Below are positions 1,525 to 26,439 of a stretch of 64,000 nt of DNA, piece after piece. Source of the DNA: Candidatus Doudnabacteria bacterium (GTDB lineage Bacteria > Patescibacteriota > Doudnabacteria > UBA920); contig CAVYGQ010000001.1 of assembly GCA_963768175.1 (NCBI GenBank), positions 100,481-164,480 on the forward strand, in the 5' to 3' direction. The notes below the pieces were generated by a model, which searched no databases, was not told the DNA's origin, and saw only the letters and a list, made by a program, of their open reading frames with translations. How positions within the stretch are numbered: the first letter of the stretch is position 1; each line of letters begins with the position of its first letter. Position numbers and translations under genes: made by a program.

Positions 1525-3408
1525 ATGCCTAAAATTTGGAAAGTAAAAACCAAAATTCCCGATGACATCGCGCAAAATTTATCGGAGTATCCGGAACTTT
1601 TGCGGCAGCTGTTTTTTAATCGTGGATTGACGGGAAAAGACCAAATTCAGGATTTTTTGGAGCCAAAATACGAAAATCTATACAGCCCGTTTTTGTTTAA
1701 AGATATGGAAAAGGCGGTGGAGCGGATTTGGCAGGCAATTGACCGGAGTGAAAAAATTTGTATTTATGGCGACTATGATGCCGACGCGATTACTGCCAAC
1801 GCGGTGCTGGCGCAGACGTTTAAATATTTAGGCGTTGAGATTTTATCGTACATCCCTGACAGGTTTACCGAAGGATACGGCATTAATATCGATGCTCTGT
1901 TAAAGATAAAGGATGAAGGATCAAAGATAATCATAACCGTTGATTGCGGCACTAATTCCGCTGACGCGGCAGAGTTTTGCAAAAAAAATAATATCGATCT
2001 AATTATTACCGACCATCATGAAATCATCGGAGAGGTTCCTGATGCTTACGCGCTGATAAATCCCAAAAATCCCGATGACAATTATCTATACCGCGATATT
2101 ACGGGAGTCGGGGTGGCATTTAAGCTGGCTTGCGGGATTTTATCAAAACGTGAAAAAATTATCGCGCGTTTTGAACCCTCACCCCTAGCCCCTCTCCCAA
2201 AGGGGGAGGGGAAGCCCGGAGTTGTGGGATGGGAAAAGTGGCTGCTTGATTTGGTGGCCATCGGCACGGTGGCGGATTGCCACAGCCTACTGGGGGAGAA
2301 TCGGATATTAGTAAAGTATGGTTTAAAAGTTTTGGCCAAGACGAAGTGGATTGGTTTACGCGCGTTGATGGAATCCGCGGGTTTGGCAGAGGTGTCCCCT
2401 CTGCAGCAGAGGGGACACCTCTGCCCGTTGAAGCCGCTTGATACCTATACCCTAGGCTTTATCATCGCGCCGAGATTAAACGCGGCGGGCAGGCTGGAGC
2501 ATGCCGGCATTGCTTTGGATCTATTGCTGGAAACCGATGCCAATCGCGCAAACGAAAAAGCCCGCAAACTGGAAGCCATAAATACGCGCCGGCAGGGGCT
2601 GACTGCGGAGGTGTTAAGCGAGGCCAAGGAAAAGGTCTTATTGCTTAAGGAAAGAAAAGTTTTGGCACTTGTAGGTGAAGGTTGGCCCAAAGGCGTAATG
2701 GGCCTGGTCGCCGGTAAATTGGCCGAGGAATTTTATAAGCCTACGATTGTGTTGGAAAAAACGGAGAATTTATGCACTGGTTCGGCCAGAACCGCCGGCA
2801 AGTTTGATATTTTGGAGGCTTTAAAGTTTTCTTCCGAGCATTTGTCCAAATTTGGCGGCCATAAACAGGCCGCTGGTTTGAGTTTAGAGGCCAATAAATT
2901 TGACCTTTTTTACCAGAAACTATTGGAATATGCCGAGGTAAAAATTGCGCCGGAATCGGCACAAAAAGCCCTTGAGCTGGAAGCAAAACTTGAGGGTCAT
3001 GACCTAATACCTAACACCTATAACCTAATATCTAAACTCCAGCCATTCGGCGTGGACAATCCCACTCCAAAATTTTTAGTTTCCAATCTTGAAGTTTCAT
3101 CAATCCGCATGGTCGGCAAGCAAACCCAGCATTTGCAGGTGAGATTTATATTGCCTTTTCGGCGTCATTCTGACCCTGAGCGGAGCGAAGGGGAAGAATC
3201 TCAATCAAAAGGAGAGATCCTTCGCTCCGCTCAGGATGACGCCGGGGTGAGTGGCAGGGAAATCGCCGGTATTATGTTTAATGCGCCGGATTTTGCCAAA
3301 ACTTTGAAAATCGGCGATACTGTAGATGTCGCGGCAGAGTTAATTGAGGACGGGTGGAACGGGAAGAGGGAAGTGAAGTTGCGCATCGTAGACCTAAAAA
3401 TTATCTAA
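1525..3408 (+). CDS. recJ: Single-stranded-DNA-specific exonuclease RecJ (DHH/DHHA1), with three in-frame palindromic insertions
   Basis: The DHH motifs (ICIYGDYDADAITA, IITDHH) and a DHHA1 region with an OB-fold C-terminus are present. Extra peptide segments are encoded by palindromes at 2189-2211, 2387-2423 and 3160-3247. Confidence 0.9.
   Translation: MPKIWKVKTKIPDDIAQNLSEYPELLRQLFFNRGLTGKDQIQDFLEPKYENLYSPFLFKDMEKAVERIWQAIDRSEKICIYGDYDADAITANAVLAQTFKYLGVEILSYIPDRFTEGYGINIDALLKIKDEGSKIIITVDCGTNSADAAEFCKKNNIDLIITDHHEIIGEVPDAYALINPKNPDDNYLYRDITGVGVAFKLACGILSKREKIIARFEPSPLAPLPKGEGKPGVVGWEKWLLDLVAIGTVADCHSLLGENRILVKYGLKVLAKTKWIGLRALMESAGLAEVSPLQQRGHLCPLKPLDTYTLGFIIAPRLNAAGRLEHAGIALDLLLETDANRANEKARKLEAINTRRQGLTAEVLSEAKEKVLLLKERKVLALVGEGWPKGVMGLVAGKLAEEFYKPTIVLEKTENLCTGSARTAGKFDILEALKFSSEHLSKFGGHKQAAGLSLEANKFDLFYQKLLEYAEVKIAPESAQKALELEAKLEGHDLIPNTYNLISKLQPFGVDNPTPKFLVSNLEVSSIRMVGKQTQHLQVRFILPFRRHSDPERSEGEESQSKGEILRSAQDDAGVSGREIAGIMFNAPDFAKTLKIGDTVDVAAELIEDGWNGKREVKLRIVDLKII
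3160..3247. repeat. Family-1 palindromic element inserted in-frame in recJ
   Basis: ggcgtcattctgaccctgagcggagcgaagg ... ccttcgctccgctcaggatgacgcc encodes FRRHSDPERSEGEESQSKGEILRSAQDDAG without interrupting the ORF. Confidence 0.8.
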
Positions 3409-3483
3409 ACATCTAAACATATAAACATTTAAGCATTCAGTAGTTGCTTATATGTTTGCATGTTTAAATGTTAATATGTTTAT

Positions 3484-3885
3484 ATGAAACTTATCATCAA
3501 CACCGACGGCGGGGCGCGCGGTAATCCCGGGCCGGCGGGGATTGGCGTTGTAATTGCCGATGGCGTTGGGCATATCATCAGCCGCCACAAAAAATATATC
3601 GGCGAAGCGACCAATAACGTAGCGGAATATAAGGCCTTGATTTTGGCGTTAAAGGAAGCGCACAAGCTCAAAACTGATCAACTGTTGGTAAATATGGATA
3701 GCGAACTAATAGTCCGGCAAATGCAGGGCAGGTATAAAATAAAAGAGCTGTCGCTCAAGCTTTTGGCGGCGGAAGCGTTAAAACTCATCAGCCAATTTAA
3801 AAACGTGATTTTCCATCACGTCCCCAGAGAACAAAATAAGGAAGCGGATAAACTGGTAAACGAGGCGATAGATAAAGTTATCTAA
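3484..3885 (+). CDS. rnhA: RNase H family protein (type 1 RNase H-like)
   Basis: The translation carries the DGGARGNPGPAGIG..EATNNVAEYKALILAL pattern of the RNase HI fold with DEDD catalytic residues. Its size (133 aa) is consistent. Confidence 0.7.
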   Translation: MKLIINTDGGARGNPGPAGIGVVIADGVGHIISRHKKYIGEATNNVAEYKALILALKEAHKLKTDQLLVNMDSELIVRQMQGRYKIKELSLKLLAAEALKLISQFKNVIFHHVPREQNKEADKLVNEAIDKVI

Positions 3886-5182
3886 TCACCAAACTTTTTA
3901 ACTCGCCGTTGTCCAAAAGCAAAACGTTTTGGCCGGCGGAGTCTATATAAAACTTTTTTACATCAGTCCCTTGGTAAAGCTGGTACTGGTTTTGGTTATC
4001 GCGCGTGTCCAGTTCTATGGCCATAAGCTTTTCGCCTTGGAAATAGAAAGCGTTGCCGATGGAATTTAAAATTTTAGGGTTGGTCAAAGTTTCGCTGCTG
4101 CGCGTGACAAAGTTTAAATTTTCGCCTAACGGGTCATAATAATCCAATTCGCCGGAATGAATTACGGATAAAAGGGAATCGCTGGGGTTAAAACTGAAGC
4201 CGGAAATATTGTCAGCAAGCTGCTGCATGCCGGAACTTACTGAGTAAAGCTTCGTATCTGCCAGCAGAAAAATTTCTTTTTCAAAAGTTACAAACAATAC
4301 GCCAAAGTTAAAGGCAGGCAGGGTATCGGCCAAGTCCTGGCTTACGGAAAAGGGCGCCTGGCTTACGAAGAGAGCGTAATTTTGGCCTTTTTGCTGGACA
4401 AAATACAGCGCTCCACCCTCGGGGGAAAAAGTTTTGACCCCGGAAAATAGGACAATTTTGGTTTTGGTTGCCGGGTTTATTGAATATAAAACATTGTTGC
4501 TTAAGGCGTAAAGCCCTCCGTCATCCCCGAATTGCAACTCAGGCAGTGTGCCAAATAGACTGCTTATGTCGTAAATTTCTCCCACGTTTTGGTTGAAAAT
4601 CAGCAAAACCGGGGAAGAGGTAGCGGCTTGGGAATTAGTAAGGGCAAAAATTTTTCCGGCTCCATCCTCGGCTAAAATTTTGTTTACGTTTTTTGGCAGG
4701 CTATAGGTTTGCGCGGCATCGGGATTATCTAAAACGGAAGTTACTAAGCCGCCTTTGGTCAAATAAATAAAATTTTTATCGTGGCTGTAAAAGTCCAAAA
4801 CTCCCTGGACCAGATTTTGAACCGAAGGATTTTTTAAAAATAAATAAATGTTGCCGAAAGAGGGGTTGGCCCAAGTTACCTGCCCGGCTTCAATAGTCAG
4901 CCTTTTGGTCCAATCTGAGTAGCCGGGTTTTTTTAAGCTGACCGTGTAACTGCCGGGCAAAAGGAAGGTCAGGTCCCCCTGGCTTTGGCGTTTTTGTTGG
5001 CCGTCCAAAAAGATCGCCGCGTCTTGGGGGTTGCTGCGCACCGCTAAAATTCCGGTCTGAACAAAACTCTTGCTGTCAAAATCAAAGCCGACGCCTTTTA
5101 CGTAAAGCACAATTATCGGAGCGGCTATGAGGAAAAAAATAAAACCTATAGCGATAATAAAATAACGGCTTTTTCTGGTCAT
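3878..5182 (-). CDS. Membrane-anchored PEGA-domain protein with beta-rich extracellular region
   Basis: It has an N-terminal TM helix and a PEGA-like segment (ILAVRSNPQDAAIFLDGQ...PGSYTVSLKKPGYSDW). No catalytic motifs were seen. Confidence 0.5.
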   Translation of the reverse strand: MTRKSRYFIIAIGFIFFLIAAPIIVLYVKGVGFDFDSKSFVQTGILAVRSNPQDAAIFLDGQQKRQSQGDLTFLLPGSYTVSLKKPGYSDWTKRLTIEAGQVTWANPSFGNIYLFLKNPSVQNLVQGVLDFYSHDKNFIYLTKGGLVTSVLDNPDAAQTYSLPKNVNKILAEDGAGKIFALTNSQAATSSPVLLIFNQNVGEIYDISSLFGTLPELQFGDDGGLYALSNNVLYSINPATKTKIVLFSGVKTFSPEGGALYFVQQKGQNYALFVSQAPFSVSQDLADTLPAFNFGVLFVTFEKEIFLLADTKLYSVSSGMQQLADNISGFSFNPSDSLLSVIHSGELDYYDPLGENLNFVTRSSETLTNPKILNSIGNAFYFQGEKLMAIELDTRDNQNQYQLYQGTDVKKFYIDSAGQNVLLLDNGELKSLVIR

Positions 5183-5252
5183 GGTTACTATATTTTAGCG
5201 TAATTTTGCCGTTGTTACAATTGGTTAGGTTTGGTATAATAAGAGCTGTTTG

Positions 5253-5352
5253 TATAATCCGAATTATCCGAATACTGCAATCCAAATGACCCGAATGGGG
5301 GAACGGATAGATTTGGGGCATTCGGATATTAATTCGGGGTATTAGGATTATA
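5253..5352. repeat. ~100-bp inverted-repeat (MITE-like) element, copy A, immediately upstream of mreB
   Basis: tataatccgaattatccgaatactgcaatccaaatgacccgaat ... cattcggatattaattcggggtattaggattatat. The same arms occur at 11212-11658 and 13926-14022. Confidence 0.8.
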
Positions 5353-5357
5353 TTTCC

Positions 5358-6365
5358 ATGTTTGAAACGAAAATCGGCATAGATTTGGGCACGGCCAATA
5401 CTTTGGTTTACGTGCCCAAGCGGGGGATTATTATTAACGAGCCAACCGTGGTTGCCATTTCTTTGGAGGACAACCGTATTTTGGCAGTGGGGCAGGAAGC
5501 TAAGGAAATGCTCGGCCGCACTCCGGAGACGATTGTCGCCTCGCGCCCCATGAAAGACGGCGTAATTGCCGACTACCGCGTAACCGAAGCTATGCTCCGC
5601 TATTTTATCAATAAGGCTTTGGGCAACATCAGGTTTTTTAGGCCCGAGGTTATGATTTCCGTTCCGGGAGGGATTACTTCTACGGAAAGAAGGGCGGTTG
5701 TGGATGCGGCGCTCGCGGCCGGCGCCAAGGCGGCCTACGTGATAAAGGAAACCGTGGCCGCGGCTATTGGCGCGGGGATTCCCATAGCCGAAGCCAGGGG
5801 CAATTTGGTCATTGATGTCGGCGGCGGTACTACGGACGTGGCGGTATTATCTTTGGGCGGAATAGTTAATTCCACTTCCGTGCGCGTGGCCGGCAACCGG
5901 CTGGACCAGGCCATAGTGGATTTTGTCAGGAGAAAACACAGCTTGGCCATTGGTGACCGCACGGCCGAGGAAATTAAAATTACCATCGGCAGCGCCGTAA
6001 TTCTAAATGAAGAAGAACTTATGGAAGTTAAGGGCCGCGATATGATTTCCGGCTTGCCTAAAACCGTTACGGTTGCCTCTAACGAGGTGGTTCAGGCCAT
6101 TACCGAGGATCTTTTGGAAATTGCCAAGGCGGTAAAAACCGTGCTTCAGGATACCCCGCCGGAACTGGCTTCGGATATTATAGACAAAGGCATGGTTTTA
6201 ACGGGCGGAACGGCACTGTTGCGCAATATAGATCATTTTATTTCCCAGAGCGTGGGCGTTCCCTGTTTTGTGGCCGAAGATCCGCTTTTGTCCGTAGCCA
6301 AAGGTACGGGCGTGGCTTTGGATAACCTTGATAGTTATAAAAAGAGCATTTTAAGCGCGAAATAG
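5358..6365 (+). CDS. mreB: Rod shape-determining protein MreB (actin-like ATPase)
   Basis: The N-terminus IGIDLGTANTLVYV, the phosphate-binding motifs and the 335-aa length are typical of MreB. Confidence 0.95.
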   Translation: MFETKIGIDLGTANTLVYVPKRGIIINEPTVVAISLEDNRILAVGQEAKEMLGRTPETIVASRPMKDGVIADYRVTEAMLRYFINKALGNIRFFRPEVMISVPGGITSTERRAVVDAALAAGAKAAYVIKETVAAAIGAGIPIAEARGNLVIDVGGGTTDVAVLSLGGIVNSTSVRVAGNRLDQAIVDFVRRKHSLAIGDRTAEEIKITIGSAVILNEEELMEVKGRDMISGLPKTVTVASNEVVQAITEDLLEIAKAVKTVLQDTPPELASDIIDKGMVLTGGTALLRNIDHFISQSVGVPCFVAEDPLLSVAKGTGVALDNLDSYKKSILSAK

Positions 6366-6444
6366 GATTTTTTTGTAATTTGATTAAAATTTAAAATTAT
6401 CCTATAATAAAAACAAATCAATTTAAAATCCGAAACAAAAATAT

Positions 6445-6915
6445 ATGGCAAGGAAATCTTTGTATCTATTTTTGGCCGCTCTTTTAGGGACGCTTTTGTT
6501 TTTGATTGCCCATCAGGTAGTGTATTTTATTTACATTTACATGCTTAGCGCGGGGCTTGTAACCACCGGTATGAGCTATGTGGAATTTTTGGCCATTGAA
6601 TACTTTACCCTGACTATTACCCTTTTGCTCGGCGCGTGGTATGGTATTTGGCTGGGCCTTTATTGGTACGAAAAAGTTTATGAAGAAAAAAGCCATAAGG
6701 GTTTTGTGCACCATGTGGCGGTTAACTATTTTCCCGGCCCCAAACCTAAAGCTCCGGAAAGCCAAATGGCCCAAGTCAAGGAGCGTCTGGAGGAAAATTT
6801 GTGGCGACTGGAAGATTTGGCCAAAAGTGAAGCAAGTTTGCCGCCCATGGTTGAGCCGGAGCCAATTAAGTGTAGGGTTGTGCGTAAGCGCGCGCCAAAG
6901 AAGTTACAACAGTAG
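6445..6915 (+). CDS. Hypothetical membrane protein
   Basis: Several TM helices are followed by a charged C-terminus. No recognisable motifs were found. Confidence 0.4.
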   Translation: MARKSLYLFLAALLGTLLFLIAHQVVYFIYIYMLSAGLVTTGMSYVEFLAIEYFTLTITLLLGAWYGIWLGLYWYEKVYEEKSHKGFVHHVAVNYFPGPKPKAPESQMAQVKERLEENLWRLEDLAKSEASLPPMVEPEPIKCRVVRKRAPKKLQQ

Positions 6916-11211: not shown

Positions 11212-11658
11212 TATAATCCGAATTATCCAAATACTGCAATCCAAATGACCCGAATTGTGGAAAAAGATTTATCCTACAAGATAACCGGTTTGTGTTTTAA
11301 AGTTCATAAAAAGTTAGGGAGATTTGCTAGTGAAAGACAGTATTGTGATGAATTTGAAAATTATCTAATAAAGGAAAATCTTCCATATGAAAGAGAGTTC
11401 GTAATCAAAAAGTTGTTACCTGATTCACCCGCAGGGAACAGGGTTGATTTTTTTGTTAAAGGGAAAGTTATTATAGACTTTAAAGCCAAACCTTTTATTA
11501 CCAAAGAAGATTATTTTCAGATGCAACGTTATTTGCAGGCAGCAAACCAGGAGTTGGGATTAATAATAAACTTTCGGGCTTATCGATTAACACCCAAGCG
11601 GATATTGAACAGCGGTTATTCGGGTCATTCGGATATTAATTCGGGTAATTAGGATTAT
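11212..11658. mobile_element. MITE-like inverted-repeat element, copy B, carrying a GxxExxY ORF between its arms
   Basis: The left arm at 11212-11256 and right arm at 11618-11658 are homologous to the arms of copies A and C. The ~360-bp interior is occupied by ORF 11245-11652. Confidence 0.6.
11245..11652 (+). CDS. GxxExxY family protein (PD-(D/E)XK-like fold)
   Basis: The GLCFKVHKKLG..E..Y..E.E... pattern is characteristic of the GxxExxY family, and the size (135 aa) fits. Confidence 0.65.
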   Translation: MTRIVEKDLSYKITGLCFKVHKKLGRFASERQYCDEFENYLIKENLPYEREFVIKKLLPDSPAGNRVDFFVKGKVIIDFKAKPFITKEDYFQMQRYLQAANQELGLIINFRAYRLTPKRILNSGYSGHSDINSGN

Positions 11659-13340
11659 TGTTTGAAACAAAAATGATTGTTAATATCCTCCTCATAATAG
11701 ATTTTCTAATGCTGGCGGTTGTTGTCAGCGCTTATATTTACGCCTCACTGCGCGAGCGCAAATATTTGCGCAAAGAAGCGGGGCAGTCACTGGAGCTGCA
11801 GCAAAAAGTTTATCAGGCCGAAGTTTTAAAAGAAATCAGTGAACGTATCGGTTACTCCTTGGACACCAATAAAATTGTGGATATTATTACCAGCTCGTTG
11901 GGCAACCTGCTGGATTACGACGCCGTCTCTTATATGGTTTTGGAAGAAGGCGGCAGGCCCGTGTTTAAATGCCACGTGCAAAATACCGTTAACCATCAAT
12001 TCATAGAAGACGTTAAGCAGAAAATGCTTATGTCCTACGAGGCCATTTTGGACAGCAAAATCCAAAGCAGCGATATGGATGAAAGCATTACCGGTAATAT
12101 TTTGGATGATAACCTAAAAGTTAAAGTGGAATCTTTTTTTAATTTGCCGGTGGTAATTTCCCAAAAATTAGTGGGGCTGATAAACGTGGCTTCCAAAGAG
12201 CGCGGCCGTTTTGGCGAAGAACAAGCGTCTATTTTATACGCCATTACCAACCAGGCGGCTACGGCTGTTTCCAAGCTCCAGGCAGTGCTGCAGAGCGAAA
12301 AAGGCAAACTGGAGGCGGTAATTTATTCTTTGGCCGACGGAGTCATAACTGTAGATTTAAACTACCATCTGGTTGTTTATAACCCGGTGATTAGGGATAT
12401 ACTGGGCATTGCCCAAGGCAAGCCCGTAACCATGTACGATATTGTCGATGGTTTGGCTGGTAAGGTTGATTTAAGGACTAAAATTGAGCAGGCCGTGGCC
12501 GAAGGCAAGGACATAACCTTGCCCGAAGTTATTTTAAGAGATAAAGCTTTGGAGTTGACCATTGCGCCGGTTAAAGACAGCCAGGGGGAGATTATCGCGG
12601 CCAGCGTCGTTTTTCATGACATTACCACGGAAAAGACTTTGGAAAAAACCAGGCAGGAATTTACGGCTATGATGGTGCATGAGCTGCGTGCTCCGCTAAC
12701 GGCTGTCCGTTGGTCTTCGGAATCCATGATCAAAAATTTAAGCCTGGCCTCCGGAGTTGGCCAGGCCAAAATTAAAGACACCATGCTGACCATTGAAACT
12801 GCTTCTAACAACATGCTGGAGCTGGTCAACGACCTTTTGGATGTGGCCAAAATTGAATCCGGAAAGTTTGAACTGAATCTTCAAGAGTATGATTTGGTAG
12901 AGGTTATTAACGATCAGGCCAAAGTTTTCAGGCCACAGGCGGAAATAAAGCATTTGGCGATTAATGTTATTACCCCGCCAAAGTATATGTTAAAATTTGA
13001 CCGCGTCAGGGTTGGCCAGGTGCTGGGCAATCTAATGAGCAACGCCATTAAGTATACCGACAGCGGGCAAATTGATATTAACCTTAACATCAATGCCGAA
13101 GAAAAAATGGCCACGGTTTCCATAAAAGATACCGGCATCGGCGTATCCCGTGAAGACCTGGCGGACCTGTTCAGCAAATTTAAACAGCTAAAAACCGGCG
13201 ACCGGAGCCGCAAAGGCACGGGCCTTGGGCTGGTGGTGAGCAAGGGGATTGTGGAAGCGCACGGTGGGAAAATTTGGGCCGAGTTTGCCGGGGAAAATTT
13301 GGGATCAACCTTTTCTTTTTCTTTGCCTTTGGATAAGTAG
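11658..13340 (+). CDS. Sensor histidine kinase (TM, GAF/PAS-like, HisKA, HATPase_c)
   Basis: The H-box MMVHELRAPLTAV is present, with N, G1 and G2 boxes (GNLMSNAIKYT, DTGIGV, GTGLGL). Confidence 0.85.
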   Translation: MFETKMIVNILLIIDFLMLAVVVSAYIYASLRERKYLRKEAGQSLELQQKVYQAEVLKEISERIGYSLDTNKIVDIITSSLGNLLDYDAVSYMVLEEGGRPVFKCHVQNTVNHQFIEDVKQKMLMSYEAILDSKIQSSDMDESITGNILDDNLKVKVESFFNLPVVISQKLVGLINVASKERGRFGEEQASILYAITNQAATAVSKLQAVLQSEKGKLEAVIYSLADGVITVDLNYHLVVYNPVIRDILGIAQGKPVTMYDIVDGLAGKVDLRTKIEQAVAEGKDITLPEVILRDKALELTIAPVKDSQGEIIAASVVFHDITTEKTLEKTRQEFTAMMVHELRAPLTAVRWSSESMIKNLSLASGVGQAKIKDTMLTIETASNNMLELVNDLLDVAKIESGKFELNLQEYDLVEVINDQAKVFRPQAEIKHLAINVITPPKYMLKFDRVRVGQVLGNLMSNAIKYTDSGQIDINLNINAEEKMATVSIKDTGIGVSREDLADLFSKFKQLKTGDRSRKGTGLGLVVSKGIVEAHGGKIWAEFAGENLGSTFSFSLPLDK

Positions 13341-19329: not shown

Positions 19330-19360
19330 TCATCCCCGCGAAAGCGGGGATCTTTATTTA
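19330..19360 (+). terminator. Rho-independent terminator after ftsI
   Basis: The hairpin catccccgcgaaagcggggatc is followed by tttattt. Confidence 0.7.
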
Positions 19361-19413: not shown

Positions 19414-19791
19414 TTACTGTCCCAGTTCCTGAATTTGCTGGGGGGTGATTTTTTCAATTTGGCTCATATTCGCCCCGGTGCCGGCAAACAACAATTTCAT
19501 GCCAACGGCATACAGCAAAATGGATACGGCGGTTAAGGTTACGCACATCCAGGCAACATCACGCGCGTCGTCTTCGTCGCTGAAAAAATATTTCAGCGCG
19601 AACAGCAGGCCAAAAGGCGGCACTCCGATGGAAATCAAATATGCCCATTTTTTCCATTTGCCGGGGACTTTATTTTTGTCTTCATTCTGCAGCGCGTTTA
19701 ACATCAGCATCCCCACGTCCACATTGGGGTTGTCTTTGGCAACGCTTTGGTATAAATCTACTTTTTTTTCAAGATCTTTGTCCGGATCCAT
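19414..19791 (-). CDS. Hypothetical membrane protein
   Basis: Two TM helices follow a charged N-terminus. The overlapping plus-strand ORF at 19445-19795 looks low-complexity and is likely spurious. Confidence 0.4.
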   Translation of the reverse strand: MDPDKDLEKKVDLYQSVAKDNPNVDVGMLMLNALQNEDKNKVPGKWKKWAYLISIGVPPFGLLFALKYFFSDEDDARDVAWMCVTLTAVSILLYAVGMKLLFAGTGANMSQIEKITPQQIQELGQ

Positions 19792-19907
19792 ATAGTTTAA
19801 TTATACCATTTTTTAATAAAACTAAAAAACCGTCCTTTTGGGCAGTTTGGCTGGCCTTATTTGACTTAATCGGAGCTGAAATAGCTAGACTTATAAATAT
19901 TCCTTAA

Positions 19908-20537
19908 TTACTGGCAATTTTCATTTTTACTATGGGACACGACTTTTGCAAGGTCAGTTAAACCAATAAAAAATCCAGAATCAGATTTTTGAGAGCTAGC
20001 AATATAATTTTGGATTTCAGGATTTTTGCTCGTAATTCCAATAAAATAGGAAAATGAATCGCACAAATCTGGCTCGCTTAATAAACCCTCATCGTATGAA
20101 CTCTCAACAGTATCAAATTCTCCAAGATAATTATCAAGTTGTGCGTCTGTATACTGCCCGTGATTTTCTGTTAGTATGGGTTGCTTGCTCTCAATAGCGT
20201 CAATAATTTTTGTATTTGTATTATTGAAAAAAGCAGAATTTAAAGCGATGTTGTTCTCTGAAGCAGTTTGTTTTTTTGCATCATCAATAAGAACATAGGT
20301 CATAATAACTAGAATGACTGTAAAAGTCACTAAAGCCCAAGTAAGATACAAAAGCCTTTTTGAATATTTATCGCTACTGTTACTAAAATTTATTATATTG
20401 GTATTCAGTTCTTTTATGCCACCTCCAAGATTCCGCAATTCTATTACTGTCGTTTTCATCCTATCGTTAGTTGTTGCGGCTAAATCACGGTCTATACCGT
20501 TACCAGTTTTTATTTCTTTAAATTCATCTTCTCCCAT
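19908..20537 (-). CDS. Hypothetical single-pass membrane protein (island cargo)
   Basis: A ~60-aa cytoplasmic N-terminus and one TM helix precede an Asn/Ser-rich extracytoplasmic domain. The gene is AT-rich and is the last gene of a three-gene minus-strand operon. Confidence 0.45.
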   Translation of the reverse strand: MGEDEFKEIKTGNGIDRDLAATTNDRMKTTVIELRNLGGGIKELNTNIINFSNSSDKYSKRLLYLTWALVTFTVILVIMTYVLIDDAKKQTASENNIALNSAFFNNTNTKIIDAIESKQPILTENHGQYTDAQLDNYLGEFDTVESSYDEGLLSEPDLCDSFSYFIGITSKNPEIQNYIASSQKSDSGFFIGLTDLAKVVSHSKNENCQ

Positions 20538-20561: not shown

Positions 20562-21026
20562 CTATTTTTTCTTTAAAATTATCTCCGCCAAAATTTTAGA
20601 ATCCTCTTTTTTTAATTTCAGCTTTCCGTCTGGTTTTGTTTCTCCCTGATTACCCATTTGAGATTGGGAGGCAGTCCAAATACTTATCTCTGACAGACCA
20701 AATGTGCCTAGCAACGCTCCAGTTTTCACATTGACATTTTGGACTTTATCAAACGGCATTATTTTACTGCTCTTGGCTACGACGCCGCTGTTTATTGTTA
20801 TTTTGTCATCATCAAAAACAAAAGTTATAGCGTGATTTTCAATCATTAAAATAATAAAAATTGGTAGCACTAGAATAATAAAAAAGCCCCAAAAAATACC
20901 CCAAAAACTGGAATTAGGAATAAAGGAAAAAATCAGGGCAAATATCAAGGCCATTATTACCAGAGTAGTAAACTGATACCACTTTAAAATTTTAGGCAAA
21001 TGATTCAATTCATTTTTATTGAGCAT
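20562..21026 (-). CDS. Membrane protein with bacterial PH domain (DUF304/YdbS-like)
   Basis: Two N-terminal TM helices are followed by a PH-like segment (ITFVFDDDKITINSGVVAKSSKIMPFDKVQNVNVKTGALLGTFG). Confidence 0.5.
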   Translation of the reverse strand: MLNKNELNHLPKILKWYQFTTLVIMALIFALIFSFIPNSSFWGIFWGFFIILVLPIFIILMIENHAITFVFDDDKITINSGVVAKSSKIMPFDKVQNVNVKTGALLGTFGLSEISIWTASQSQMGNQGETKPDGKLKLKKEDSKILAEIILKKK

Positions 21027-21085: not shown

Positions 21086-21706
21086 TTATGCGAACTGTTG
21101 CAACTGTCCTAAAATGGCCTGTTCCAGCTGAACAGTATCATAATGGCGTTGAGGCTTGATGTGTAAAATATTTAACTCTGAGGCTCTCAAAGCCCCGTCT
21201 AAAAAATCATCTCTTAATTTTCTATTGAAATAATTATGGGTATAATCATCCAGTTCAATAACCAAAAGTGGCGACAAATAAACTTTGTCAAAGATTACAA
21301 AATCTACTGTCTTTTTGTTTATCCTGTTAAAGTTGCTGTAAGTGGAATTTGTGCCGTATCTTTCCAGTCCGCCTTGGACTTCAATGATTCGGGATAAGGC
21401 AACCTGTGGCATAATAAAATACCTGTCCTTGATTATTTCCTGTAGCACTCCGAAAAACTTGTATTCGGTTTGGGTCATCAGGTATCGCTTTTTTCTGAAT
21501 GGATAAATTTTATCGTCTTTTTTTACTTCCTGAATTTTTGTATTGCCAGCATTACTAGGCGGTAAAGGTATCTCGGAATAATTTTGCTTTGAGCTTTTTA
21601 TGATGTAACTGGCAAGAATGATTATGATTATTAAACCAAATAAAAAATCCATAAATTTGCTTTTAGAAACACAAAGCCCCGGTCCAGCCGGGCTTTTACA
21701 CCCCAT
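21086..21706 (-). CDS. DUF2726-domain protein (NERD/restriction-endonuclease-like fold), membrane-anchored
   Basis: An N-terminal TM helix precedes the DUF2726 signature (TVDFVIFDKVYLSPLLVIELDDYTH ... RDDFLDGAL...LNILHIK). Confidence 0.55.
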   Translation of the reverse strand: MGCKSPAGPGLCVSKSKFMDFLFGLIIIIILASYIIKSSKQNYSEIPLPPSNAGNTKIQEVKKDDKIYPFRKKRYLMTQTEYKFFGVLQEIIKDRYFIMPQVALSRIIEVQGGLERYGTNSTYSNFNRINKKTVDFVIFDKVYLSPLLVIELDDYTHNYFNRKLRDDFLDGALRASELNILHIKPQRHYDTVQLEQAILGQLQQFA

Positions 21707-22000
21707 ACCCCTTTCGGGATATGACCATAAGACAGTAGCTGAACGCGGGGTTCAGTATGTCTTATGGTTTTACAGCCGTGCCTGATTAAAGGTTTAGGCC
21801 ATTCAGTTGTGATTAAATTATACCAAACTTGACAACAATTTTAAAGGGGTGTATGGTGGAGTTAGTTCATTAAAAAGTTAATAATTAAACGTAAGTTTTA
21901 TTTCTCCTCCCTCGGAGTAAGACAGGGGCTATGCCGTTTTGAACACAAAAACGGTGTGGCGTTTTGACCGCTTGTCTCAGCCATTAGAGGCCTTACAAAA

Positions 22001-22207
22001 GTGTTTGTGGGGTTTAATATGTCTGGGTTCAGTAATGAGCTAAAACAGCGTTTAATTGATTATTTTCAAACGAAATACGGACAAAAACTAACCTCAGAAC
22101 AAGCTGAGGCTTTTTTATTGTCCCTTGCGAATCTGTATTCGCTGGTGGTAGAGCGGCGGGCGGGCCCGCAGGGCCAGCCCGACCGCCGCTCTACCTGTAT
22201 TACTTGA
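22001..22207 (+). CDS. Small hypothetical protein upstream of the recombinase (possible accessory or directionality factor)
   Basis: The 68-aa ORF ends in a GC-rich hairpin (gagcggcgggcgggcccgcagggccagcccgaccgccgctc). No motifs were recognised. Confidence 0.25.
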   Translation: MFVGFNMSGFSNELKQRLIDYFQTKYGQKLTSEQAEAFLLSLANLYSLVVERRAGPQGQPDRRSTCIT

Positions 22208-22322
22208 ATTAAGCTACACATAAGGGGATTTAATAATTACATAATTAATTTTAAGTTCTGTCAAAATAATTTGTATTTTTCTTTTGGTTAGATATATAAT
22301 CAAGCTAATTAAAAAATCAAAT

Positions 22323-23792
22323 ATGAAATATATAATCTACACCCGTAAATCATCCGAGGCCTCTGACCGCCAAGTCCTGTCCATTGAATCGCAGGAAAAT
22401 GAGTTATTGGCTTTGGCTGATAGGAATGGGGCTAAGGTTGGTAAAATATTCCGTGAGAGTATGTCAGCCAAACAGCCAGGCCGTCCTGAATTTGAAAAAT
22501 TAATAAAACTGATTGAACAAAATCCCTGCTCTGTGCTATTCGTCTGGAAACTTGACCGCCTCGCTCGTAACCCCGTTGATGAGGGTAAAATTAAGTGGCT
22601 CCTGCAAAACAAGACCATAGCCCAAATTATTACGCCTGACAGAATTTATAATCCCAATGACAATGCCTTAATCGCTTCTGTGGAATTTGGAATGGCTAAT
22701 CAGTATATTCGTGATTTATCGTCCAATGTAAAACGAGGCAATAGGACTAAACTTCAAAAAGGTGAAATGCCTGGTGCGGCTCCTATCGGCTACTTGGATA
22801 ATCCCTTAACCAAATTAAAAACTATTGACGCTCTAAAAGCTCCACTGATAAAACAAGCATTTGAACTTTATGCGACTGGGGCATACAGCTTAAAAACAGT
22901 TGGTAAAATGATTGAGACTTCAGGCCTTAGAAGTAAACTCGGCAATCCTCTAAAAAAAGCCATACTGCACCATATGTTTACAAATCCTTTTTACTACGGA
23001 GCCATTAGGCATAATGGAGAAATATATCAAGGAGTTCACGAGCCAATTATTTCCAAAACATTATTTGATACAGTGCAATATGTCTTAAGCGGTAAAACCC
23101 GCCCTAAAAAACAAAAACACTTCTTCCCTGTTAGAGGCTATATGCTCTGTCATTCCTGCGGCTGTCTGCTTACTGCCACAACTAAAAAAGGCCATTCATA
23201 TTATTATTGCACTAATGGCAAAGGCAACTGCCAACAACACAAAAAATATTTAAGAGATAAAGCCGTGGACAAACTCGTGGCTAAAACCTTAAACGAAATT
23301 AAATTTGATACCTCAATGATTGAAATGGCTTATCTCGCTTACAAGGAAAAAATCCTAAATGGCAACGATAATTCTCAAACTAGAAAATCTGAACTCTCCT
23401 TACAGCTCAAATCTGAACAGGACAAGCTCTCTAATCTCGCCAAGGTTATTTCCTCTAAGCCGACACTCGCTAACTCCCTAGAGGCTGAAATTTTATCTCT
23501 AGAGGTAAAGATTAAATCCATTGAGCAACAGATTAAGCAAACTGACAAACAGACCCTCCAGGAGCAATTATTTACTTTGGAACAAACAAAAAAGGCCTTT
23601 TTACAGGCCAGTTCCGCATCTTTTGACTATTTGGATAGCGATGATTACCAAAAATTTGAACTGCTAAAAAATTTACTTTGGAACCTCAAGGTAGAAAATC
23701 AGAAAGTCCAACAATATCAGTTCAAAAGTTATTATCAACTTATGGCTGAAAGCCCTAAAAACCTTCAAATTTCTGGTTGGCTGGGGTGGTAG
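22323..23792 (+). CDS. Large serine recombinase (resolvase/invertase catalytic domain, recombinase domain, zinc ribbon)
   Basis: The N-terminus YIIYTRKSSEASDRQVLSIESQ carries the catalytic Ser, with a Cys cluster (CHSCGC...C) and a C-terminal coiled-coil. The likely start is the ATG at 22323. The 3' end overlaps a tRNA-Gln-derived repeat. Confidence 0.85.
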   Translation: MKYIIYTRKSSEASDRQVLSIESQENELLALADRNGAKVGKIFRESMSAKQPGRPEFEKLIKLIEQNPCSVLFVWKLDRLARNPVDEGKIKWLLQNKTIAQIITPDRIYNPNDNALIASVEFGMANQYIRDLSSNVKRGNRTKLQKGEMPGAAPIGYLDNPLTKLKTIDALKAPLIKQAFELYATGAYSLKTVGKMIETSGLRSKLGNPLKKAILHHMFTNPFYYGAIRHNGEIYQGVHEPIISKTLFDTVQYVLSGKTRPKKQKHFFPVRGYMLCHSCGCLLTATTKKGHSYYYCTNGKGNCQQHKKYLRDKAVDKLVAKTLNEIKFDTSMIEMAYLAYKEKILNGNDNSQTRKSELSLQLKSEQDKLSNLAKVISSKPTLANSLEAEILSLEVKIKSIEQQIKQTDKQTLQEQLFTLEQTKKAFLQASSASFDYLDSDDYQKFELLKNLLWNLKVENQKVQQYQFKSYYQLMAESPKNLQISGWLGW

Positions 23793-23803
23793 GATTCGAA
23801 CCT
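23778..23803 (-). repeat. Partial copy of the tRNA-Gln 3' end (candidate att-site direct repeat)
   Basis: tggctggggtggTaggattcgaacct matches the 3' 26 nt of tRNA-Gln at 26228-26253 with one mismatch. Confidence 0.6.
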
Positions 23804-23931: not shown

Positions 23932-24639
23932 ATGGGGAAATATCCAAAAATTAAATTTATTATTGATTTTAAAGAAGACAAAAAAAATGCGCTGAGATTT
24001 TTAGGAGATACTAATGAATGGAAAAAGGAGCGTTTTTTTCCGTCTGAGTTACAATATGTTCTACAGAATAAATTAGCACAGAAAGAAAAACAAAGGATTG
24101 TTAATAACTTTGTTAAACAGTATTTTTTAAAAAATGAGTTTGAAATTAAAATTGGGGTAAGAGCAATTGCAAATGAATGGATGTCGATTGGAAGGTATTT
24201 TTTTGATCTAGTTGACAAGCTATTTTACGACCACCCTTGGCCAAAAGGAAACTACGTGGGATATGCAAGTATTTTTAATATGTTTCCTAGAGATATTGAG
24301 AAAAAAACCTTTTCATTTCCATATCGGAAGGAAGATGTCAGTTGGGCAATAAAAGTGATAGCCCATGAAATGTTACACTTTATTTTTTTTGACTATTTAA
24401 ATAAAGTGTATAGGTATACTCAAAATACCCAAATAAAAAATAAAAATTCAAACTTCATTTGGCAATTATCAGAGGCTCTAAACAATATAATAGAAAATTC
24501 GCGATCATACCGTAAGGTCATACCAATAAAAAAATTGAGCAAGCCATATCCAGGAAACGAAAAAATTTATAAAAAACTACTGGCCCAATGGAATAAAAAA
24601 AACGATATAAAAAAGTTATTGGATAGCGCTTTAGGGTAA
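23932..24639 (+). CDS. Hypothetical protein with an HExxH motif (possible zinc-dependent hydrolase)
   Basis: It has an IAHEMLH motif and an AT-rich composition. No other similarity was recognised. Confidence 0.45.
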   Translation: MGKYPKIKFIIDFKEDKKNALRFLGDTNEWKKERFFPSELQYVLQNKLAQKEKQRIVNNFVKQYFLKNEFEIKIGVRAIANEWMSIGRYFFDLVDKLFYDHPWPKGNYVGYASIFNMFPRDIEKKTFSFPYRKEDVSWAIKVIAHEMLHFIFFDYLNKVYRYTQNTQIKNKNSNFIWQLSEALNNIIENSRSYRKVIPIKKLSKPYPGNEKIYKKLLAQWNKKNDIKKLLDSALG

Positions 24640-24796: not shown

Positions 24797-25063
24797 ATGC
24801 CCAAAGGCAAATACAAAGTCAGTCCGGAAGTTAAAACTCAAATTCTAAAACGAATTAAGGAAGAAGGTGTCAGCGTCACCCAGGCGGCCGAGGAGCACGG
24901 CCTGTCCACCCAAACCATTTACGGCTGGATAGCCAAAGGGGTTACAGCTCCGCCGTCCGTGCTTGAACTCTCCCGCCTGAAGCGGGAAAATCAAACCCTC
25001 CACGAGATTATCGGCCGGCTGACAGTCAAACTGTCATTGGCGGAAAAAAAGGACATTGGTTGA
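24797..25063 (+). CDS. IS3 transposase OrfA (HTH plus leucine zipper)
   Basis: An HTH (VSVTQAAEEHGLSTQTIYGW) and a heptad-Leu C-terminus are present. The gene ends inside an A7G run at 25044-25051. Confidence 0.85.
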   Translation: MPKGKYKVSPEVKTQILKRIKEEGVSVTQAAEEHGLSTQTIYGWIAKGVTAPPSVLELSRLKRENQTLHEIIGRLTVKLSLAEKKDIG

Positions 25064-25895
25064 AGACCTGTCCGCCGCTATGCACCTTGAAAATCCGACT
25101 AAGACCGAGTTGGCCAGGAGCTTGGGAGTCAGCAGAGCCAGTCTGTATTACGAACCTACCCTGCCGCAAAAAGACTGGCTCCTTAAAATCCGCATTGAAC
25201 AAACCCTGCATGACCACCCCAGCTACGGCCACAAACGGCTGGCTCCGGCGCTACATGTTAACAAGAAAAGAATCCGGCGCACCATGAGGCTGTTTGGTAT
25301 TAAGCCTTACCGCAGGACAGGCAGAAAGCTAAGAAAAGCAAGGGATTTGGGACAAATTTCCGCTCCTTACCAAAACTGGCTGATGCTGATTCCGTTTCCA
25401 GAAGAGCCGGGAATTGTCTGGGTCAGTGACTTTACCTACATATCATTCCACGGCCGGTTTGTTTACCTGGCGACGATAATAGATTTATTCACCAGGGAGG
25501 TTGTCGGCTGGTCAGTCTGGACCGCGCATAGCAGCCAGCTAGTTCTACTGGCTTTAATTGACGCACTGGAAAAACATCCGGCGGCCAAATATCTCCATTC
25601 CGACCAGGGGCAAGAATACAAATCCCGAACCTACTGTAGGCTGGCCGAACAGGCCGGTATTACAATTTCCATGAGCCACAAATCATCACCGTGGGAGAAC
25701 GGCTACCAAGAATCCTTTTATGGCAAGCTCAAGACTGACTTAGGTGATCCGGGGAGGTTTAAGACCTTGGGAGAGCTAACGGCCGAAATTTACCTCCTCA
25801 TCTACAGCTACAACCACGACAGAATCCATACATCATTAAAAATGCCGCCGTCAGCATTTGCCGACCGGCAGCGGAATCAAGTATCATTAACTTAA
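25023..25895 (+). CDS. IS3 transposase OrfB (DDE integrase core), frame open from 25023 and overlapping orfA by 41 nt
   Basis: An rve-type DDE core is present (WVSDFTYI ... HSDQGQEY ... with a downstream E). It lies in the +1 frame relative to orfA. Confidence 0.85.
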   Translation, partial: QSNCHWRKKRTLVEDLSAAMHLENPTKTELARSLGVSRASLYYEPTLPQKDWLLKIRIEQTLHDHPSYGHKRLAPALHVNKKRIRRTMRLFGIKPYRRTGRKLRKARDLGQISAPYQNWLMLIPFPEEPGIVWVSDFTYISFHGRFVYLATIIDLFTREVVGWSVWTAHSSQLVLLALIDALEKHPAAKYLHSDQGQEYKSRTYCRLAEQAGITISMSHKSSPWENGYQESFYGKLKTDLGDPGRFKTLGELTAEIYLLIYSYNHDRIHTSLKMPPSAFADRQRNQVSLT

Positions 25896-26141
25896 CCTTA
25901 AAAAACCGCAGAGAAGGTGCCTAAAGAAATGGGTACCTTACAGGGGAAATTTCTTTCAGCTCTGTATAAAATTTAGCTATTAAAAGACAAAAAAGTGTAC
26001 CTGGAATGAAGTAGGACTTCGAACCAAGATAAACAATAGTTTAGACAAAAATAAGAGCATGGACTAAAATTCATGCTCTTATTTTCTATAAGTTCTTGTC
26101 CTTTAACTTAGGGTTGGTAGGTCTGTAGGAACCAAAATTTC

Positions 26142-26205
26142 TGGCTGCCCGGGTTGGATTCGGACCAACGCATGGAGGCTCCAAAGGCCCCCTTGCCCCG
26201 CACCA
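26142..26205 (-). other. Degenerate tRNA-Gln-like remnant (pseudo-tRNA)
   Basis: tggctgcccgggttggattcggaccaacgcatggaggctccaaaggccc... parallels the tRNA-Gln 3' two-thirds, including the CTTTGGAG anticodon region. The acceptor stem cannot pair and the length is only ~64 nt. Confidence 0.4.
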
Positions 26206-26227
26206 ATTTTTAACAAATTTATTCTCT

Positions 26228-26302
26228 TTGGCTGGGGTGGCAGGATTCGAACCTGCGAATGGCGCCTCCAAAGGGCGCTGCCTTACCACTTGGCGACACC
26301 CC
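26228..26302 (-). tRNA. tRNA-Gln (anticodon UUG)
   Basis: The minus strand reads UGGGGUGUCGCCAAGUGGUAAGGCAGCGCCCUUUGGAGGCGCCAUUCGCAGGUUCGAAUCCUGCCACCCCAGCCA. It folds as a cloverleaf with U1-A72, a 7-nt anticodon loop CUUUGGA and an encoded CCA. It is close to E. coli tRNA-Gln. Confidence 0.9.
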
Positions 26303-26439
26303 AAAATAAGACAACTAAGGTATATTATAAAATAAATTCGGGAAAAAAGAAAGCCCAACCTTGAGTATGGGGAGCTTGCGGAATTTGCGTTTGACAGCCA
26401 AAATGTGCTATAATTTCTTTAGGATTAATCCCTAAATTT

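Follow-up and report, generated by a model that had tools for sequence, protein, structure and literature searches.

A DUF2726 gene on the minus strand of a 64,000-nt stretch of a Candidatus Doudnabacteria genome (GenBank assembly GCA_963768175.1, contig CAVYGQ010000001.1, positions 100,481 to 164,480 of the forward strand; this whole stretch is the window, and coordinates count from its first letter) is cargo of an integrative element of about 4 kb, and its product may be a membrane-tethered nuclease that excludes incoming DNA in the manner of SNIPE. We give this reading, which is drawn by analogy, a probability of roughly 0.45. As in SNIPE, the tether would keep a potentially toxic nuclease off the chromosome; it would also set the nuclease where phage, filamentous-phage, plasmid or transforming DNA enters the cell, and the element would thereby shut out competitors and shield its host. 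Expression would probably be gated by a leader RNA of the LOOT family together with a terminator-like hairpin. The DUF2726 gene itself is ordinary and typical of its very large, uncharacterised family; what is new is the link between LOOT, a serine recombinase and membrane-protein cargo. Transmembrane (TM)-anchored DUF2726 proteins thus become candidates for a second immunity mechanism, after SNIPE, that cuts DNA at its point of entry.

The open reading frame (ORF) called at this place has 206 codons (21086..21706, minus strand), and its product matches Pfam DUF2726 (PF10881) with 97 bits against a gathering cut-off of 24.7 (E = 9.1e-28), residues 74-198 aligning with profile positions 2-123 of 126. 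The second ATG (21652), not the first (21706), is the predicted true start. All 12 full-length homologues begin at the equivalent of M19 (‘MDFLFGL...’, 21652), and the annotated start is judged wrong because of this agreement. The 18 surplus codons (54 nt) coincide with the 3′ end of the LOOT RNA and with the terminator-like hairpin at 21678-21692. The gene is accordingly given as follows:

21086..21652, minus strand: true coding sequence of the DUF2726 nuclease, 188 aa, from homologue starts
21593..21649, minus strand: codons of the N-terminal TM helix, residues 2-20 of the 188-aa protein, from AlphaFold2, hydropathy and charge bias
21653-21706, minus strand: spurious N-terminal extension, overlapping LOOT and the hairpin

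An AlphaFold2 model of the 188-aa protein, built from 13 sequences, reached a predicted local distance difference test score of 83.5 and comprises a helix (residues 2-20), a disordered linker (22-44) and an alpha/beta nuclease core (50-188). In fold comparison the nearest relatives of the core were Vsr, DUF559 and I-Bth0305I, all with the restriction-endonuclease-like alpha-beta core, and the modelled Vsr-type fold agrees with a published grouping in which DUF2726 is classed with Vsr and DUF559 (PMC3424549). No solved structure matched the protein at the sequence level, even at E ≤ 10. An earlier note on this DNA had called DUF2726 NERD-related; that kinship finds no support in the nearest folds, and a Pfam scan at E ≤ 0.1 returned DUF2726 alone, with the NERD profile unmatched. 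Since the nearest folds are of Vsr type, the expected active-site motif is D...E-x-D...H rather than the D/E...K for which the note proposed to look, which is the wrong motif for this branch. The family motif consists of an aspartate in strand 2 and I-E-L-D-D-x-x-H in strand 3 and the following loop, and is intact here, so the acidic and histidine residues asked about are kept in the form proper to the family. The window protein has all of E63, D117, E133, D135, D136, H139 and D148, each of them 99-100% conserved among 80 diverse relatives; part of that conservation is artefactual because the relatives were fetched partly via these motifs. By sequence and model, the C-terminal domain is a predicted Vsr/DUF559-type PD-(D/E)xK nuclease with the active-site residues of its family intact.

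The N-terminal TM anchor described in the earlier note was confirmed by the modelled helix 2-20 ahead of the Pfam domain, and it recurs in relatives. We retrieved 85 DUF2726 loci (82 non-redundant) by conserved motifs, called their ORFs by a simple longest-ORF heuristic, and predicted TM segments by hydropathy and topology by charge bias. A strongly hydrophobic N-terminal 18-mer precedes the domain in 78 of the 85 loci, and a lysine/arginine bias after the helix predicts an outward N terminus and an inward C terminus in 68 of 72 family members by the positive-inside rule alone. The nuclease domain would thus face the cytoplasm, anchored on the inner side of the membrane. An exhaustive HMMER search put the family at 5351 representative clusters with E ≤ 1e-3, of which 1482 also pass E ≤ 1e-10; most members have 160-230 aa with the domain at the C terminus. 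The TM-anchored architecture is therefore the norm for a large family borne on mobile DNA.

SNIPE (Saxton et al., Nature 2026, PMC13190303) has a TM helix with an outward N terminus and a cytoplasmic GIY-YIG nuclease, cleaves phage DNA at injection, and is toxic when the TM helix is removed. The DUF2726 protein is predicted to share the short external N terminus, the single TM helix and the cytoplasmic nuclease. Like SNIPE it is a single gene in variable regions, for which a tether is a plausible solution to the problem of self and non-self. It differs in carrying a Vsr-type PD-(D/E)xK rather than a GIY-YIG domain and in being much smaller (188 aa). Neither DUF4041 nor GIY-YIG was detected in it by Pfam scan, and it would therefore work like SNIPE without belonging to that family. 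Vsr, NGO0050 and I-Bth0305I have no N-terminal TM anchor, whereas the window protein has one. Close upstream control, by an HTH_3 gene in other loci and by LOOT and the hairpin here, is consistent with toxicity. The gene also resembles moron and superinfection-exclusion genes, which are small, variable, low-G+C membrane-protein genes beside an integrase or attachment site with their own promoter, and DUF2726 genes likewise lie in the accessory region of Vibrio inoviruses. The window element differs from temperate and filamentous phages in having no structural, replication or packaging genes.

TM-anchored DUF2726 genes are widespread, almost always solitary and borne on mobile elements. Among the sources of the loci are Patescibacteria, Clostridia, Thermoguttaceae and Vibrio, and a DUF2726 homologue was found on 160 plasmids and in seven Vibrio filamentous phages; in the one Vibrio phage examined for placement (PQ189324), the gene follows the morphogenesis genes and lies beside a PD-T7-4 defence gene. 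Neighbour clustering of the 82 non-redundant loci, with Pfam, placed the REP_ORF2-G2P rolling-circle Rep of filamentous phages in 11 loci plus L008, Zot, the inovirus assembly ATPase, near DUF2726 in 19, and a 72-aa HTH_3 gene immediately upstream in 10. A homologue of the window recombinase lies near DUF2726 in four loci (L006, L014, L015 and L019), in all of which its 3′ end overlaps a tRNA gene, with a whole tRNA-Gln in L006, L015 and L019. tRNA-Gln adjoins DUF2726 or the recombinase in eight (L001, L003, L006, L009, L011, L015, L019 and L035), standing directly ahead of DUF2726 in L001 and L003. In only 33 of the 82 loci is DUF2726 followed within 400 nt by any ORF on its own strand, and the 45 downstream ORFs show no recurrent Pfam family except a second DUF2726 in three loci. 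These tandem pairs, with the second copy directly downstream, comprise L024, L033, L034 and similar loci by our own reading. The Xre-type HTH_3 loci (L060, L064, L066, L067, L069-L072, L076 and L053, at positions ~5600-5900 of each) are mostly from Clostridia metagenome-assembled genomes, several with Zot; the gap between HTH_3 and DUF2726 is 2-13 nt in six of the ten, a layout that recalls restriction enzymes with their controller proteins. The window is syntenic (FtsL, PBP2 and the host gene p125) with the Doudnabacteria contig L008, in which, at 2387-6456, an operon for two putative DNA methylases (assigned by eye), a 299-aa protein and a HARE-HTH protein ends with DUF2726; a G2P-type Rep and a homologue of p68, a small protein of the window element, lie next to it.

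The region directly upstream of the window gene contains three elements that may control it:

21690..21800, minus strand: LOOT RNA (Rfam RF03000), directly upstream of DUF2726, found by cmscan
21668..21692, minus strand: terminator-like hairpin with T-rich tail between LOOT and the DUF2726 start, CCCGG-CTGGA-CCGGG followed by GCTTTGTGTT
21817..21845, minus strand: promoter-like site TTTAAA-17-TATAAT with TG, upstream of LOOT, found by consensus scan

The LOOT copy scores 70.3 bits in cmscan against a gathering score of 46.4 (E = 3.5e-11) over all model positions (1-121 of 121), with a minimum free energy of -55.5 kcal/mol (z = -3.7). It scores 97.7 bits with our own covariance model R1, which is mainly a sequence model with two helices, because the MAFFT alignment of LOOT copies recovered two Rfam helices only. 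Conserved sequence reaches past the Rfam model in both directions, to ~21666-21813, with a 5′ ACAAYTKAAT box and a conserved 3′ sequence, GGGCTTTGTGTTT / GGYGGGCTTTTTGT. A closing helix between the 5′ ACAA box and a 3′ TTGT was considered and rejected, the flanking position pairing in 27 of 56 copies versus 24.7 expected by shuffling. Several other LOOT loci likewise have a TATAAT in the corresponding position. The hairpin stands ~25 nt ahead of the DUF2726 start codon, and the consensus scan of the window found no promoter-like site between it and ATG 21652, the only one for the cargo being upstream of LOOT. With a promoter-like site only ahead of LOOT and a hairpin before the start, LOOT seems to head a cargo slot, and we infer that it acts as a leader or attenuator.

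DUF2726 has LOOT immediately before it in the window and in L013, L014, L019, L177 and L189; the proteins of the three loci found with the Rfam model (L013, L014 and L019) are just 35-41% identical to that of the window, and in four divergent DUF2726 loci LOOT is placed 38-50 nt before the start codon. It is not an obligate partner of DUF2726, a possibility rejected when our own model found it in only three other DUF2726 loci. A pattern scan of viral contigs gave four Rfam-confirmed LOOT copies on three contigs, two of them with a homologous serine recombinase, and L102 has a LOOT-like copy (a weak match to our own model) near such a recombinase. A metagenome scan by the LOOT 5′ pattern returned at least 120 stretches, the metagenomic set thus requiring the 5′ box, and the metagenomic counts given here hold among the matches listed. 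Our own model confirmed LOOT in 77 of 80 loci, and the first ORF after it encodes DUF2726 in only 2 of ~64 usable loci. The other downstream ORFs are very diverse; among their products are TM-bearing trypsin-like proteases, zinc-ribbon-plus-TM, DUF4352, pilin-like and NucS-like proteins, a bPH_2 protein and a type IIG restriction-modification enzyme; the ORF starts 18-63 nt past LOOT in seven of eight closely inspected loci. In the combined LOOT set, a strongly hydrophobic segment is present in 42 of 59 LOOT-downstream ORFs versus 90 of 475 further ORFs from these loci (odds ratio 10.6, Fisher P = 1e-15). A recombinase homologue occurs in 22 of 77 LOOT loci, and where at least 1.5 kb of upstream sequence was available (47 loci), a recombinase lay within 3 kb in 15, divergent from LOOT in all 15. 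Two LOOT copies, each with its own ORF, occur on single contigs (L198, at 11406-11531 and 12757-12882; L088/L110, which are one 40-kb viral contig), which suggests tandem cargo slots.

LOOT was described by Weinberg et al. 2017 (PMC5737381), and a search of the available literature found no published function. Rfam types RF03000 as a small RNA (sRNA) gene, whereas here it behaves as the head of a cargo operon. We tentatively propose, as a possibility with the odds still against it, that LOOT is a cis-acting leader rather than a free-standing sRNA, that it gates a swappable membrane-protein cargo slot in minimal serine-recombinase elements and prophages, mostly on Patescibacteria-like metagenomic contigs, and that the TM-DUF2726 cargo would be a second, independently evolved SNIPE-like nuclease destroying DNA as it enters. 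An orphan RNA gains a genomic context here, and an ‘sRNA of unknown function’ becomes a testable leader or attenuator hypothesis.

Two further genes follow DUF2726 on the same strand, with intergenic gaps of 59 nt and then 24 nt:

20562..21026, minus strand: second cargo gene, two-TM bacterial PH-domain (bPH) protein, 154 aa (Pfam bPH_2, E = 1.4e-11)
19908..20537, minus strand: third cargo gene, single-pass protein p209, 209 aa, with one TM helix and no Pfam match

ORFs and Pfam thus bear out the description in the earlier note of a same-strand two-TM bPH protein followed by a single-pass protein. Two hydrophobic helices precede the bPH_2 domain, and the protein matches PHROG 3707 (‘membrane-flanked domain, moron’) at E = 0.0017. 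In p209 the N terminus bears a conserved motif and the C-terminal domain is all-helical, with two nearly invariant cysteines; comparison of the p209 model returned generic helical proteins only, with no recognisable sensor fold. The note had further joined the three genes into one membrane-associated defence or toxin system, with DUF2726 as effector and the other two as sensors. The common orientation, the short gaps, the shared low G+C content and the membrane location of all three products speak for such a system, as do the PH-like membrane-binding domains of some SNIPE homologues (PMC13190303). We nevertheless regard it as very improbable, because the partners do not travel together. The triplet, whose recurrence across genomes the note had proposed to map, was found in none of 82 related DUF2726 loci, five bPH loci and five p209 loci, and no ORF in all 85 DUF2726 loci gave a BLASTP match to the window bPH or p209, so that neither pair recurs either (0/85). 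A same-strand downstream ORF is missing from most DUF2726 loci, and bPH_2 lies outside the 25 commonest Pfam families of the 45 downstream neighbours and is therefore carried by at most one of them. Elsewhere the two genes keep quite different neighbours: homologues of bPH adjoin GIY-YIG and MORC-like ATPase genes or a C5 methylase gene, and those of p209 adjoin Mrr, NUDIX and HEPN_AbiV genes or a serine recombinase, or sit in a prophage-like locus. Each of the three cargo gene types occurs on its own behind LOOT in other elements, a bPH_2 protein unrelated to that of the window directly behind it in L159 and a p209 homologue in a LOOT-headed operon in L245/L246. The trio is thus best described, by these comparisons, as three unrelated membrane-protein cargo genes and not a three-gene system. 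What stands of the proposed membrane-associated effector is the anchor and the nuclease fold, with a role in defence or exclusion plausible; the sensor partners fall away.

Other functions can be envisaged for the DUF2726 protein alone. It might serve the DNA transactions of its element, either as an origin-distorting or structure-specific factor for rolling-circle or plasmid replication, like DDP3 (DNA distortion polypeptide 3, NCBIfam NF041452) of R6K/IncX plasmids, or in processing single-stranded DNA at the membrane. DDP3 also has a DUF2726-type domain on a mobile element and is annotated as an IncX replication accessory gene with a role in origin topology, not defence; the window protein matches its profile in part (E = 5e-10), DUF2726 is frequently linked to G2P Rep and Zot, and inovirus replication and assembly happen at the membrane. 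We consider this role fairly unlikely, as the DDP3 score (39.6 bits) falls far under the cut-off of 140 and so outside the equivalog, and the profile has 116 positions covering the domain only, so that DDP3 probably lacks the TM helix. The window element and many other loci have no Rep or Zot, and the Vibrio inovirus gene lies in the accessory region past the morphogenesis genes, once beside a defence gene. A distinctly unlikely role is that of an addiction-type toxin, a nuclease curbed by an upstream regulator (LOOT here, an Xre-type HTH in Clostridia) that would kill cells losing the element. Nuclease toxins are common on mobile DNA, and the gene is in tight coupling with the control elements before it, with the structured LOOT RNA 38-50 nt ahead of the start in the four divergent loci. 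Yet LOOT heads dozens of unrelated genes, mostly for non-enzymatic membrane or secreted proteins, and is therefore no dedicated antitoxin; LOOT and the HTH gene are both absent from most DUF2726 loci, and the membrane anchor would be left unexplained. Patescibacteria rely on scavenged nucleotides, and a membrane-anchored nuclease could also be a housekeeping enzyme of a reduced-genome host for DNA uptake or nucleotide salvage, like the membrane nucleases of competent bacteria. This is scarcely credible for a domain predicted to be cytoplasmic and a gene that lies in a low-G+C integrative element and has a patchy distribution across phages and plasmids from many phyla. The exclusion of incoming DNA by a SNIPE-like tethered nuclease has its own difficulties. 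The protein lacks the DUF4041 domain by which SNIPE binds DNA and the tape-measure protein, and the one relative that has a name, DDP3 of R6K/IncX plasmids, carries the annotation of a ‘DNA distortion’ factor for the replication origin and not that of a defence nuclease. Enzymes of the Vsr type nick specific sequences or structures and are not bulk DNases. PADLOC-DB v2 gave no match at E ≤ 0.1 for DUF2726, nor for bPH or p209, and the limits given above on the motif conservation and on the topology weigh on the same side.

The element spans ~19.85-23.80 kb and is inserted at a tRNA-Gln gene of this Patescibacteria genome. As a minimal recombinase-plus-cargo unit, it has p68 and the recombinase on one strand, divergent from LOOT, DUF2726, bPH and p209:

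19414..19791, minus strand: host gene p125, left flank of the element, with a 52% identical homologue beside PBP2/FtsL in L008
22001..22207, plus strand: p68, small conserved element protein upstream of the recombinase, start probably ATG 22019
22147..22195, no strand assigned: 49-nt GC-rich palindrome at the 3′ end of p68, ahead of the recombinase gene
22284..23792, plus strand: large serine recombinase (integrase) with Resolvase, Recombinase and Zn_ribbon_recom domains
23771..23803, minus strand: element border on the right, an attachment-site remnant that copies the 3′ part of tRNA-Gln and overlaps the recombinase stop
26229..26303, minus strand: intact tRNA-Gln(UUG), the target gene, found by ARAGORN and Rfam

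The mobile-island location proposed in the earlier note is well supported by the low G+C content of the trio region (33-37% versus ~44% for the window), the recombinase and the tRNA-Gln attachment-site remnant; the trio region adjoins the large serine recombinase, an IS3 transposase and tRNA-Gln. The recombinase matches PF00239 (E = 3e-20), PF07508 (E = 2e-14), PF13408 (E = 2e-5) and the PHROG 95 integrase (E = 7e-77). The remnant at 23771-23803 is 91% identical over 33 nt to 26222-26254, and a second insertion, comprising p235 (23932-24639) and IS3 (24797-25895), parts the element from the intact tRNA-Gln. The left border falls between 19792 and 19907 and is approximate, because the only match to the tRNA 3′ end found there is the 9-nt CCAGCCAAA near 19850. 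An integrated inovirus-like prophage was considered and rejected, as tblastn with the Rep and Zot proteins of related loci found no G2P Rep or Zot genes or remnants in the window. Homologues of p68 lie beside Rep or a recombinase in L008, L013/L177 and L128 by BLAST, and a p68-like 75-aa protein was noticed in L015 by eye only. Little is known of the mobile DNA of Patescibacteria, and these features, with the related loci, outline a family of very small elements there that integrate at tRNA-Gln.

Several minor features were recorded in and around the element. The palindrome at 22147-22195 folds as RNA at -41.6 kcal/mol (z = -3.7) within an AT-rich stretch, and could be a terminator or a protein-binding site. 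The p235 ORF encodes 235 aa with an HEMLH motif and no family match. Directly beside the intact tRNA-Gln, 26135-26187 resembles a degenerate tRNA, sharing 74% identity with the 3′ two-thirds of tRNA-Gln, and is not called by ARAGORN or Rfam. On the left, a strong bidirectional terminator-like hairpin at 19332-19351 (ATCCCCGCGAAAGCGGGGAT) lies between the convergent PBP2 and p125 genes and is an ordinary host feature.

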